From IMG/VR virus record IMGVR_UViG_3300045988_114118: DNA of 63,362 bases; one strand, given 5' to 3'. The stretch is from a virus. Every line of letters begins with the position of its first letter. The stretch's first letter is position 1. Below, one piece after another: positions 811-4,911 of this stretch. Made by a program: the position numbers and the translations under genes. The notes below the pieces were generated by a model. That model ran no database searches. It was not told the origin of the DNA and was given only the letters and a program-made list of their open reading frames with translations.

Positions 811-871
811 TGCTCCCTGCCGGGCTTGAACCGGCGACCCTAAAGGCTCTGACCAACTGAACTAAGGGAGC
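811..871 (-). ncRNA. tRNA-like minigene lacking the anticodon arm (61 nt)
   Basis: minus strand reads GCUCCCU-UA-GUUC/AGUUGGUCA/GAGC-CUUUAGGGUC-GCCGG/UUCAAGC/CCGGC-AGGGAGC-A. It has a perfect 7-bp acceptor, a canonical D arm and a canonical T arm, but only 10 nt where 23 nt (anticodon arm plus variable loop) are expected. Confidence 0.55.
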
Positions 872-1902: not shown

Positions 1903-1989
1903 TGGTCACCGGGGTGGGATTCGAACCCACGGGGTATTTCTACTCCTCTTTAGGAGAGAGGGACGCTTCCAGTTACGTGCTACCCGGCG
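1903..1989 (-). tRNA. tRNA with anticodon CCU (Arg by anticodon), long variable arm, encoded CCA
   Basis: CGCCGGG-UA-GCAC/GUAACUGGAA/GCGU-C-CCUCU/CUCCUAA/AGAGG-AGUAGAAAUACCCC-GUGGG/UUCGAAU/CCCAC-CCCGGUG-A-CCA; 87 nt; one A.C mismatch in the D stem. Confidence 0.7.
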
Positions 1990-2434: not shown

Positions 2435-2548
2435 GCAACTTTTAAGTTGCGTTTGTTTGCTTGTATTGTTGTTTTACGATGCAAATATAATGCAATTGCA
2501 TTAATGGTAGAAATATTATGTGATAAATATTAATGCTTTTGCATTAAT
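2435..2548. promoter_or_regulatory. divergent promoter/operator region with three inverted repeats
   Basis: gcaactt-tt-aagttgc (2435-2450); perfect 16-bp palindrome taatgcaattgcatta (2488-2503); attaatgc-tttt-gcattaat (2529-2548); shared AATGCA/TGCATT half-sites. Confidence 0.6.
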
Positions 2549-2564
2549 TAACTATGGTCGATAT

Positions 2565-3353
2565 ATGGAGACAATCAATAACAGGATTAAACTAATTGTA
2601 GATGAGTTGTTTGATGGCAATGTTAGTGCATTTTGCCGTAGAGTAGGAGTAAAACAGCCTACTATTAATACAATATTAGGGACTCGTCAAAGTAAGCCTT
2701 CATATGATATTATTAATGCTATTGCATTATCTGGGCTGGGTGTGTCTTTGGCATGGTTAGTTACAGGATCTGGTGAAATGAAGGATGAGGGGAATGTTAA
2801 GGACGAGGTATTAGAAATACCTTTAGACCTTAATAAAGGAGATTTCTTAATTGAGAATAATAATGGCGTTAAATTTTATGACTTAGGAAATGGTCGATAT
2901 CGTATGACTGTCAGCAAGGTGCCGTTTTGCGCTTATGGCAGGTTTGCTAACGAAAGCGATCGTCTTGATCCGGATAAGGAGGATTGGGAGACTGAGTCTT
3001 TCGAATGGGATCGGATTGTCCATGGGAGATATTTAGCTTTTGAGGTTAAAGGGGACAGCATGGACAACGGGACGAGAGAGAGTTTTGAGGAAGGCGATGT
3101 CGTCCTTGTTAGGGAGCTGGATAGATCGCATTGGAGAGATGGGCTGCGATATAAGGATCATCCTTATTGGGTTGTCGTGTTTGGGACATCCGTCCTCATA
3201 AAGCAGATGACAGGCTGCGATATGGACGAGGGTAAGATAACGTTGCACTCACTAAACCCATCTCCAGAGTTTTCCGATTTCTCTTTACCGCTAGATAGCG
3301 TGAGGGCTTTATATTATGTATTACAGAAAAAGCCTAAAGTCGTGAGATTTTAA
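2565..3353 (+). CDS. CI/LexA-like repressor (N-terminal XRE-type HTH plus C-terminal S24 peptidase)
   Basis: NVSAFCRRVGVKQPTINTILG HTH; FEVKGDSMDNG...GDVVLV plus a downstream Lys (LIKQM), typical of S24 autopeptidases. ATG at 2565 is preferred over the GTG at 2520. Confidence 0.85.
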   Translation: METINNRIKLIVDELFDGNVSAFCRRVGVKQPTINTILGTRQSKPSYDIINAIALSGLGVSLAWLVTGSGEMKDEGNVKDEVLEIPLDLNKGDFLIENNNGVKFYDLGNGRYRMTVSKVPFCAYGRFANESDRLDPDKEDWETESFEWDRIVHGRYLAFEVKGDSMDNGTRESFEEGDVVLVRELDRSHWRDGLRYKDHPYWVVVFGTSVLIKQMTGCDMDEGKITLHSLNPSPEFSDFSLPLDSVRALYYVLQKKPKVVRF

Positions 3354-3466
3354 CGAGAAAGCCATACGCAAAAATGATATGATGTTCTTTAGCGTATCCT
3401 TGCCCTGTTAAAACGTGATAATAAATATTTGATGTATAAATCGATACGATACAAAATGGAGAAATA

Positions 3467-3508
3467 CTTCTAAGCTGTGGGTCATGGGTTCGAATCCCAT
3501 CCTGATCA
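3467..3508 (+). other. attP core: copy of the 3' half of a tRNA-Arg(UCU) gene
   Basis: CTTCTAA (anticodon loop, TCT)-GCTGT-GGGTC-ATGGG/TTCGAAT/CCCAT-CCTGATC-A. There is no complementary 5' half upstream; the site lies about 150 nt upstream of the integrase. Confidence 0.7.
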
Positions 3509-3513
3509 CGAAG

Positions 3514-3567: not shown

Positions 3568-3663
3568 AGATCTTTCCCCTTTTGTAGATTAAAAAAAAGG
3601 ATATAAAGTCCACTTTTGGACATAAAAGCTTATCCTTCGCGTATCCTAAAAAATTTAATCTAT

Positions 3664-4911
3664 ATGGCTACTTTAAAATTGACACTTTTCAAGGCCAAGG
3701 CTCTCAAGGATGGGAGGCACAAGGTCAGGGTGGCGGTCTGCCACAAGAGAGAGACTTGTTATATCGTGACGAACGTGATATTAGATAGCGAGTCCCAGTT
3801 TAAGAACGGTCAAGTCGTAAAGAGACCGGACGCTTCTTTTATAAACAAAAGATTGAGGAATATGCTTAATGAGTATCAAGACAAGCTTGACTCGATTAAG
3901 AACCAATCGTTATATACATGCGTGCAGATAAAGGGAATGTTGGTTAATTCAGCAGGGGATAACGATATCTCTACGTTCAAGGATGTAAGCTCATCCTATG
4001 AAAGGGAGTTGATCGATAATGGGAGTATCGGGTACTCAAAGCTGATCGAGCGGAATTGCAGGTATTTTACCGAGTTCGTGAAAGGGGATATATTCCTTTC
4101 CGATATCACTCCAGAACTGATAGAAGGTTATTCTAGGTTCTTGAGGAATAAAAAGGGAATTGGGGAGGCCACGAACTCCATGATGATGAGACATACCAAG
4201 ACTATAATCAATAAGGGTATAAAAAGAAGGCTTGTGAAATATGATGTCCATCCTTTCGTAAACTTCCAGATAGCGACTTCTCCCGTACGTGAGGTTGACA
4301 TATCTTTCGAGTCATTTAATCGTTTGCGAATGGCCGATCCTTCGGAGCGCCGATTAAAGGTGGCGCACGATCTGTTTTGCTTGTCGTTTTATCTTGGAGG
4401 TATCAATCTTATAGATCTACTTGGTATTGATTTCCGTGGAATCAATACGCTGGAATATGTAAGGACTAAATCTAGGAATATGACGAGGGGAGGCAATAAG
4501 ATCGTGTTCTCTATACCAGACCAAGCGAGAGATATTATAGATAGATGGATGGATAAGAGGACTGGCAAGTTGGATTTCGGATATAAGTTTTCCTATCCTA
4601 ATTTCTCTAGGTATCTTTCTCGTTCGCTATCCAAATTGGCGCAGTCGTTAGGGATAACGGAAAAAGTGGTGTATTATTCCGCTCGTAAATCTTTCGCTCA
4701 ATATGCTTCCGAGATAGGAATCCCGGATGGGGTCATAGATTATTGTTTAGGGCATTCAGATAAGTCGAAAGGCGTGATACGTTATTATACTAAGGTAAAA
4801 AAATTTCAAGCGGACATGGCGATATCAAGGGTAATTGATTACGTTAACAATCCGGATCGTTACCGGGATTATGTGGAGATGAGAAGGGATATAATGATGA
4901 TGCGTGGGTAA
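3664..4911 (+). CDS. int: tyrosine recombinase / phage integrase
   Basis: N-term MATLKLTLFKAKALKDGRHKVRVAV (arm-binding type); C-term ARKSF...CLGHS...VIRYY (R..H..Y catalytic pattern); adjacent to the tRNA-derived attP. Confidence 0.9.
   Translation: MATLKLTLFKAKALKDGRHKVRVAVCHKRETCYIVTNVILDSESQFKNGQVVKRPDASFINKRLRNMLNEYQDKLDSIKNQSLYTCVQIKGMLVNSAGDNDISTFKDVSSSYERELIDNGSIGYSKLIERNCRYFTEFVKGDIFLSDITPELIEGYSRFLRNKKGIGEATNSMMMRHTKTIINKGIKRRLVKYDVHPFVNFQIATSPVREVDISFESFNRLRMADPSERRLKVAHDLFCLSFYLGGINLIDLLGIDFRGINTLEYVRTKSRNMTRGGNKIVFSIPDQARDIIDRWMDKRTGKLDFGYKFSYPNFSRYLSRSLSKLAQSLGITEKVVYYSARKSFAQYASEIGIPDGVIDYCLGHSDKSKGVIRYYTKVKKFQADMAISRVIDYVNNPDRYRDYVEMRRDIMMMRG

Follow-up and report, generated by a model that had tools for sequence, protein, structure and literature searches.

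The viral DNA studied here (IMG/VR record IMGVR_UViG_3300045988_114118; all 63,362 nucleotides (nt) of it are referred to as the window) carries on its minus strand, at positions 811 to 871, a tRNA-like gene of 61 nt with an acceptor stem, a D arm and a T arm and without an anticodon arm. In all likelihood, this element derives from a full-length tRNA(CAT) gene and has remained under constraint since the arm was lost. Armless genes of the same build are found in many other viral contigs, and they probably serve as RNA-processing signals or tRNA mimics and are not dead genes.

Structure, origin and constraint of the element

Read from 871 to 811, the minus-strand RNA is GCUCCCU UA GUUC AGUUGGUCA GAGC C UUUA GGGUC GCCGG UUCAAGC CCGGC AGGGAGC A. 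The acceptor stem is formed by seven Watson-Crick pairs (GCUCCCU at 865-871 with AGGGAGC at 812-818) and is followed by an unpaired discriminator A at 811; the fold and the Rfam model agree on this. U8 and A9 occupy 863-864. The D stem GUUC/GAGC (859-862 with 846-849) has a single wobble pair, U11.G24, and closes the D loop AGUUGGUCA (850-858), inside which G18 and G19 lie. The T arm GCCGG-UUCAAGC-CCGGC has a 5-bp stem (831-835 with 819-823) and a 7-nt loop (824-830) that fits UUCRANY, and the core positions U8, A14 and C48 are in place. Indeed, every pairing that a preliminary description, made from the letters of the sequence alone, had listed for the acceptor, the D arm and the T arm is present, as is the discriminator A. 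The D and T arms are separated by only 10 nt, C-UUUA-GGGUC at 836-845, which comprise C26 (845), UUUA (841-844) and the variable-loop-like GGGUC (836-840). A defining part of a tRNA is thus missing, namely the anticodon arm with its 5-bp stem and its 7-nt loop containing the anticodon. Therefore, the element is not classed as a tRNA, and it cannot decode.

The Rfam tRNA model (RF00005) matched the element with 41.0 bits (gathering score, 29; E = 1.4e-6 in a 3-kb search) and aligned to it from end to end, with 17 anticodon-arm model positions skipped. A covariance model built from armless elements (R1) gave 68.8 bits (E = 1.6e-18), and no second full match to it was detected in the 63-kb window with filters off. 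ARAGORN did not call the element and reported only a tRNA-Arg(CCT) in the window. When the whole window was scanned with Rfam, the speed filters dropped the element although it was above threshold in the 3-kb search; in gathering mode, even the bona fide tRNA-Arg, likewise above threshold in the 3-kb search, was dropped. The minimum-free-energy fold recovered the acceptor stem, the T arm and two flanking hairpins and favored a small hairpin, GA.CC-UUUA-GG.UC, over the D stem. True tRNAs often fold thermodynamically without the D stem in favor of alternatives. The small hairpin is not supported: it had no supporting covariation and is not kept in the homologue from Vibrio phage K476 described below.

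The origin of the element was traced by scanning viral contigs with its 5' half alone, and identity of the locus was judged from the conserved flanks. It yielded 74-nt tRNA(CAT) genes that agree with the element in acceptor stem, D arm, variable loop, T arm and 3' trailer. At the same locus, the intact 74-nt gene was found in 15 contigs (four alleles, 12 copies identical) and the armless form in 40 contigs (12 alleles); Bacteroides phage BF1-TP2, a phage of B. fragilis to which the window is ~90% identical, and 39 viral contigs share the locus and the architecture of the element. The two alleles read GAGC-G-[CAACA CTCATAA TGTTA]-GGGTC and GAGC-C-[TTTA]-GGGTC, and their alignment bears out the proposal that the 17-nt anticodon stem-loop was replaced by UUUA. 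Outside the arm, the full-length and the armless allele differ in a few free loop positions, and the same mosaic of flanking haplotypes carries either form. Since an intact tRNA(CAT) gene is present at this very locus in 15 contigs, the element arose from a tRNA gene by deletion. A single deletion from the extant intact sequence cannot yield the C-UUUA bridge. The intact gene has the pairs C4-G69 and C5-G68, and its T arm is like that of E. coli tRNA-Ile2, which presumably points to a lysidine-type AUA reader; the parent was probably of the tRNA-Ile2/Met type. Phages commonly pair a tRNA(CAU) gene with a tRNA-Arg for AGG, and the ileZ-argN-argO genes of lambdoid Shiga toxin phages are an example of phage tRNA(CAU) genes. 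Like many phages, the window has a tRNA(CAU)-derived gene partnered with an AGG-reading tRNA-Arg; the phage tRNA(CAU) genes differ from the element by the presence of the anticodon arm.

Variation within the window's family was then compared with the tRNA fold. The armless alleles vary at tRNA positions 16, 20, 20a, 26, 57 and 60 and at the fourth base of the bridge; in all, 7 of 18 free positions are variable compared to 3 of 43 constrained ones (Fisher p = 0.005). Two of the three changes at constrained positions, C11U and A70G, are wobble compatible, and a single contig (L196) has C48A together with A70G. With the exception of this C48A, U8, A14, C48 and G18-G19 are invariant in the family, whereas neighboring loop positions vary. 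Across 34 distinct haplotypes with 150 nt of flank on each side, nucleotide diversity was 0.007 in the stems (2 of 32 sites segregating), 0.077 in the loops (8 of 29), 0.23 in the upstream flank and 0.14 in the downstream flank (169 of 288 sites in both flanks together). Hence, the stems are 20 to 30 times less diverse than the flanks (p = 4e-9 for segregating sites), with the loops intermediate, and such a gradient is not expected for a recent neutral pseudogene. In the preliminary description, a normal tRNA in relatives combined with a lack of conservation was taken as the mark of a recent deletion pseudogene. The normal tRNA does exist in the 15 contigs, but the lack of conservation does not hold, given the low stem diversity and the fact that the armless allele is the commoner one.

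Armless genes in other viruses

Vibrio phage K476 (L002) carries a homologue of 60 nt, annotated as "tRNA," with the same acceptor stem and the same UUUA bridge. Its T stem is altered by compensatory substitutions, and CCA is encoded. The GCUCCCU acceptor together with the D arm of the element is a common phage tRNA scaffold that is found with CAT, TCT, CCT, TAT, CTT and GTT anticodons; a special acceptor identity common to the element and the K476 homologue was therefore rejected as evidence. At ~2700-2780, K476 also has an odd tRNA-like sequence, GATGATG...CATCATC A, between its tRNA-Arg(CCT) and tRNA-Gly(TCC), for which ARAGORN made no call.

Viral contigs were searched with a pattern in which a common D arm and the start of the T loop were fixed and a bridge of 6 to 17 nt was allowed. 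Among the matches listed, 117 of 148 retained six or more of the seven acceptor pairs and four or more of the five T-stem pairs, compared to ~1% by chance. At least 86 distinct armless sequences were obtained, with 68 different acceptor 5' strands and bridges of 6 to 14 nt. This armless class was delimited for the present analysis and is no curated family; its members may have arisen independently several times. The element belongs to it by its acceptor, D and T arms, its kept stems and elbow and a bridge in the range of 6 to 14 nt in place of ~23 nt. ARAGORN called none of these at least 86 members, and because the default filters of Rfam can lose them as well, routine annotation would miss the class. 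A GG corresponding to G18-G19 was present in 86 of 86 D loops among the matches listed, although the pattern did not demand it. The bridges usually end in GGUC or UGUC (C48), and A is the commonest discriminator, the discriminators being mixed.

Stem positions of the class that deviate from Watson-Crick pairing are G.U in 50 cases and A.C in 5 (p = 2e-10; the filter counted Watson-Crick pairs only). This asymmetry argues for constraint on the sense-strand RNA and not on the DNA. Formal counting of pairs revealed massive two-sided change, but class covariation was taken as descriptive and not as proof of selection because the set had been filtered for pairing and because pairing may be inherited from different parents. 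Therefore, we rely on the diversity within families instead. A conserved neighboring protein was not found across the class; there is only lineage-specific adjacency to terS or terL.

In cellular genomes, 18 of 119 matches to the same pattern were armless, and these were scattered over unrelated taxa. The rest were mostly tRNA-His and tRNA-Pro, which match since their anticodon stems contain GGTTCAA. The armless share of the pattern matches is thus 15% in cellular genomes and 79% in viral contigs (among the matches listed), and the class is virus enriched. In 11 contigs of Bacteroidota genomes (L240, L247, L271, L272, L278, L283, L316, L325, L351, L354 and L355), a chromosomal sequence of the form TAGCTCAG..AGAGC-AACAGACAAnnn-T arm recurs; it has a short bridge and variable acceptor pairing and, judged by these features, may be a further short-bridge tRNA-like lineage of Chitinophagaceae and Flavobacteriales. 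A full-text literature search, which left most subscription-journal papers outside its coverage, found no description of phage- or bacteria-encoded tRNAs without an anticodon arm and surfaced only organelle analogues and tRNA-cleaving defense systems (P2-OLD and PARIS). The armless phage class is apparently undescribed.

The structural constraint seen in the window's family is replicated in an unrelated family that lies upstream of terS. In this sublineage (acceptor AUCCCCU, 25 contigs), the element is immediately preceded by a terminator-like hairpin and a U tract, and ~25 nt separate its 3' end from the ribosome-binding site of terS. The length of the bridge is polymorphic (6, 9, 13 or 14 nt), and no intact relative with the 5' half of this sublineage was found. 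Diversity at stem positions not fixed by the pattern was 0.073, compared to 0.47 upstream and 0.30 downstream (p = 1e-5). Pair by pair, the stems contained 203 Watson-Crick, 6 G.U and 7 mismatched combinations, and 6 of the mismatches were at pair 1-72. At the corresponding site, 34 nt before terS, the cultured relative Dorea phage DO134P1 (L361, 3400-3610) carries a full-length tRNA-Met(cat), and Roseburia phage Jekyll (L360, 3861-3929) has a degenerate element of acceptor plus T arm 62 nt before terL; both carry the motif CGCCUUGAUAGAGGAG followed by a T-arm-like hairpin. tRNAs or tRNA-like elements recur directly upstream of terminase genes in Lachnospiraceae phages.

Flanking hairpins and genomic setting

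The element is flanked by two hairpins, both of which are conserved within its family. On the 5' side, the minus strand folds at 875-897 into U-GCCGGGG-UGGGAUU-CCCCGGC-A, followed by AAC, and this hairpin ends 3 to 4 nt before the 5' end of the element. The 7-bp stem-loop GCCGGGG-UGGGAUU-CCCCGGC had been described correctly at 876-896; an additional U-A pair extends it to 875-897. Its loop had also been called T-loop-like, and this did not stand, because relatives carry the reverse complement AAUCCCA; since the loop occurs in both orientations, the hairpin was rejected as a T-loop mimic. Across relatives, either UGGGAUU or AAUCCCA is found (L001, L007, L011 and L036 are among those listed), as if the palindromic stem had mediated an inversion of the loop, and in a third haplotype an unrelated hairpin, ggcggcccggaaagacgggc, stands at the same distance upstream of the element. 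The hairpin at 875-897 has no U tract and therefore is not a canonical intrinsic terminator.

On the 3' side, 6 nt past the discriminator, the minus strand folds at 792-805 into CACCC-CUAG-GGGUG. This is the 14-bp palindrome cacccctaggggtg of the preliminary description, which is real and folds as a hairpin, although its coordinates had been given one position off, as 793-806. Relatives have CAUCC-CUAGC-GGAUG, with a compensatory change of C-G to U-A, or CACCC-CUAAC-GGGUG.

Structure on the 5' side is not restricted to the window's family. Throughout the class, the 40 nt upstream of the element had a mean folding energy of -10.4 kcal/mol compared to -6.3 kcal/mol for random 40-mers from the same contigs (p = 6e-11), and the excess persisted without the window's family (p = 1e-7). 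The upstream hairpins end 0 to 8 nt before the 5' end of the element, some with a U tract and others without. In three viral contigs (L144, L142 and L048), a GC-rich hairpin of 14 to 15 bp plus ACCA is located in the 50 nt upstream of, and directly next to, the armless gene, which itself ends in ACCA in L144 and L142 and in ACCC in L048. From their sequence, these arrangements look like two consecutive modules resembling RNase P substrates.

The phage of the window is a temperate Bacteroides phage, with a CI-type S24 repressor gene at 2520-3353 and a tyrosine integrase gene at 3616-4911, both on the plus strand. From the repressor gene diverges a leftward operon in which the element is embedded in the same direction; the order is two open reading frames (ORFs) of 67 amino acids, tRNA-Arg(CCT), a membrane-like ORF of 117 amino acids, the element, and the ORFs at 461-691 and 313-477. 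By position, the element is between the minus-strand ORFs at 1207-1560 and 461-691. Its earlier placement in an early operon between small membrane-protein genes is plausible; the flanking ORFs on which it rests have no assigned function. The tRNA-Arg(CCT) at 1903-1989 (minus strand; found with ARAGORN, and with 40 bits in Rfam) is ~1 kb upstream of the element and is the only canonical tRNA of the window. It is unusual in having 87 nt, a variable region of 12 nt and two extra bases after position 9. Since this tRNA is part of the leftward operon, tRNA processing of the transcript is expected anyway.

A motif scan revealed the Bacteroides-type -7 motif TAnnTTTG at 2482-2489 on the minus strand, in the divergent region facing the repressor gene. 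It is the only minus-strand copy upstream of the element within 250-2600 and is a candidate for the promoter of the operon, on weak evidence given that the motif count in the whole window is at chance level. Between this site and the element, no terminator-like site was found on the minus strand, and the scans found neither a promoter motif nor a terminator belonging to the element itself. A scan for sigma-70-type promoters was also made; that consensus is uninformative for Bacteroides. Some 140 nt upstream of the element, at 1008-1023 on the minus strand, there is a T-arm-like hairpin, GGGG-UGCGAGUU-CCCC, which is kept in BF1-TP2 with one extra G-C pair and could be the remnant of another tRNA or a separate RNA structure.

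Possible functions

The element is on the same strand as its operon, has conserved hairpins on both sides and has no promoter motif of its own, and therefore punctuation of the polycistronic RNA by RNase P and RNase Z, one of the roles suggested in the preliminary description, fits best. We consider the chance that this mechanism operates about even. The element would be transcribed within the leftward early operon that diverges from the CI-type repressor gene. RNase P would cut between C872 and G871, at the 5' end, and a cut after A811 would be made by RNase Z or an equivalent enzyme. The polycistronic RNA would thereby come apart: the upstream piece would end in the hairpin 875-897, the downstream piece would start with the hairpin 792-805, and an armless RNA of ~61 nt would be released. 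The hairpin 875-897 would then become the protected 3' end of the upstream RNA. What end-processing enzymes would require is kept: the acceptor stem, the discriminator A, the T arm, the D arm with G18-G19, and U8/A14/C48. In evolutionary terms, a tRNA gene would have been retained for its processing signal after the decoding role was lost, as in t-elements or MALAT1/mascRNA. Once decoding had become dispensable, removal of the whole arm would be a safe way to retire the tRNA, with the processing signal surviving; point-mutated anticodons, in contrast, would cause mistranslation. In structure and position, the element matches a t-element-like processing signal, as far as these can be read from DNA.

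The t-elements of plant mitochondria, reportedly the subject of Hanic-Joyce 1990 and Forner 2007, are a close counterpart. Those of the A. thaliana nad6 type are degenerate tRNA genes with mimics of acceptor and T arm; like the element, they lie beside or between mRNAs of the same strand, where they act in cis as RNase P and/or RNase Z signals for mRNA ends, and the one at nad6 has no anticodon arm (PMC5499578, citing Forner 2007). They differ in being organellar, in being served by a protein-only RNase P and in that their cleavage has been shown; moreover, their D arm is usually more degenerate, whereas the phage element keeps the full D arm, the elbow and the core nucleotides. The second counterpart is mascRNA/menRNA (Rfam mascRNA-menRNA) from MALAT1 and MEN-beta, also a tRNA-like RNA of ~60 nt within a longer transcript: the 5' cut by RNase P makes a structure-protected 3' end upstream, and the small RNA is freed and receives CCA (PMC11693755). 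These modules differ from the element in that they belong to eukaryotic nuclear long noncoding RNAs, retain a reduced anticodon-like arm and have a triple helix upstream, and there is no sequence relationship.

Several points weigh against punctuation as the role of the element. We infer transcription, cleavage and any benefit to the flanking mRNAs. The K476 homologue stands in a pure tRNA array (Met-CAT/armless/Arg-CCT), where there is no mRNA to punctuate. Throughout the class, the downstream flank is not enriched in structure, so downstream hairpins are not general. The discriminator is followed by CCA in 9 of the 86 listed members compared to ~1.3 expected, which fits a mature trans-acting RNA too. 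Recombination or gene conversion at a conserved sequence may account for part of the low diversity of the element; the alleles sit on mosaic flanks. Furthermore, the D arm, G18-G19 and the core are kept beyond the minimum for RNase P and are not obviously explained by processing alone. For bacterial RNase P, the acceptor and T-arm region is sufficient, and the 3' CCA is used as well (PMC5499578). Since minihelices of acceptor and T arm are cut by RNase P, a pure processing role poorly explains the conserved D arm, elbow and core.

These features would be accounted for if the armless RNA, processed and provided with CCA, were a stable tRNA mimic that acts in trans through its acceptor end and elbow. 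Its targets could be acceptor-end toxins or defense enzymes, processing or modification enzymes, or EF-Tu if it is charged, and it would evade the decoding center and anticodon nucleases. The excess of encoded CCA, the CCA-bearing homologue in the tRNA array of K476 and the enrichment of the class in viruses all point in this direction, as does the fact that many members are alone (63 of 83 listed members have no canonical tRNA in the retrieved locus). There is also an organelle precedent for selected non-decoding tRNA-like genes, tRNA-X1/X2/X3 of Vischeria (a eustigmatophyte) mitochondria (PMC13060386, bioRxiv 2026). They are derived from a tRNA (trnK) and selected across the genus, with a variable, truncated or absent anticodon arm and a conserved T arm and remainder; they are inferred not to decode, and, like members of the armless class, some are missed by standard tRNA finders (PMC13060386). 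They differ from the element in being mitochondrial, of independent origin and without a reported flanking-hairpin architecture (PMC13060386). Against a mimic speak the absence of a conserved protein partner beside the elements and the failure of the literature search to find any such decoy. The 68 kinds of acceptor 5' strand in 86 listed sequences and the mixed discriminators argue against a single partner or identity, and the GCUCCCU acceptor common to the element and K476 is just the general phage scaffold. The earlier ideas of a decoy or an enzyme substrate are neither supported nor excluded. We regard a trans-acting mimic as a rival to be taken seriously, though less probable than punctuation, and the more general proposal, that phages of many bacterial phyla encode stable non-decoding armless tRNAs that arose repeatedly and were selected for action in trans, as unlikely. 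Processing in cis and mimicry in trans are not mutually exclusive.

If the element were a functionless pseudogene, its arm would have been lost by deletion and it would persist through youth, hitch-hiking or use as a homology patch for recombination. The intact tRNA(CAT) at the same locus in relatives and the shared flanking haplotypes of both alleles, which indicate frequent recombination around the site, are in keeping with this, and the stem pairing and G.U bias of the class could be inherited from many parent tRNAs. Moreover, in one contig (L022) the acceptor stem seems to have been exchanged as a module, not altered by gradual covariation, and the C48A plus A70G of L196 is possibly early decay. 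However, the armless allele is both commoner and more diverse than the intact one (12 versus 4 alleles), its changes avoid stems and tertiary-contact positions, the stems are far less diverse than the flanks, with loops intermediate, and the bridge cannot be obtained by one deletion from the extant intact allele. The family upstream of terS, for which no intact relative was found, keeps its stems despite near-saturated flanks (diversity of 0.47) and a changing bridge length. Loss of all function is therefore doubtful, and we would be surprised to see it borne out.

It is very improbable that the element is a chargeable non-decoding tRNA, aminoacylated by an anticodon-independent synthetase, that titrates the synthetase or donates its amino acid outside decoding like the tRNA-like domain of transfer-messenger RNA (tmRNA) or the aminoacyl donors for cell wall and lipids. 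Methionyl- and isoleucyl-tRNA synthetases (MetRS and IleRS) recognize tRNA(CAU) mainly through the anticodon. This feature of the parent is absent from the element, which is therefore not recognizable through an anticodon by MetRS, IleRS or TilS. G3:U70 is found in 5 of 86 listed members, and a few (such as L032 and L131) combine this alanine set with A73 and also encode CCA; in the window element, the pair is U3-A70 instead, and acceptor identities are heterogeneous across the class. tmRNA is proof that a tRNA-like domain can be charged and put to use without an anticodon (PMC3985003). Like the element, it is bacterial in setting and has an acceptor stem and a T arm but no anticodon, and it is processed by RNase P; its alanine-charged G3:U70, its lack of a D stem, its mRNA-like domain and SmpB have no counterpart in the element, near which no mRNA-like domain or SmpB-type partner is located.

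Hardly credible is a DNA-level element, that is, an attachment, recombination or integration-target site resembling a tRNA gene: temperate phages do carry tRNA gene fragments at attP and the element is within 3 kb of the integrase gene, but an attP fragment comprises just the 3' part of a tRNA gene. The element, by contrast, retains both halves, occupies an internal position with intact flanks on either side in dozens of contigs and belongs to a class whose 50:5 ratio of G.U to A.C makes sense for a sense-strand RNA only. An att-site remnant was rejected on these grounds, and also because the element is ~2.7 kb from the integrase gene and a separate fragment of the typical attP kind exists. 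The latter lies at 3463-3513 on the plus strand, between the repressor gene and the integrase gene and ~100 nt upstream of the second. It corresponds to the 3' two-thirds of a tRNA-Arg(TCT)-like gene, with the anticodon loop CTTCTAA, a variable loop, the T arm ATGGG-TTCGAAT-CCCAT, the acceptor 3' strand CCTGATC and the discriminator A; it is likely to be the attP core for integration into a host tRNA gene.

What is new here is the widespread, constrained and unannotated phage class; the element itself is an allele of a tRNA gene, and precedents exist in organelles. Phage genomes thus contain a sizeable unannotated class of tRNA-derived RNAs, and the within-family data demonstrate that strong structural constraint can persist in a tRNA gene after loss of the decoding arm. 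The armless allele is available in culture in BF1-TP2, and natural full-length alleles exist in related phages. Should the RNA act in trans, phages would have a novel type of countermeasure or host-manipulation RNA, and as a mimic this RNA would escape anticodon nucleases and could not cause mistranslation. The findings suggest a second job for phage tRNA genes, as RNA-processing modules in operons, and this bears on the question of why phages carry tRNAs.

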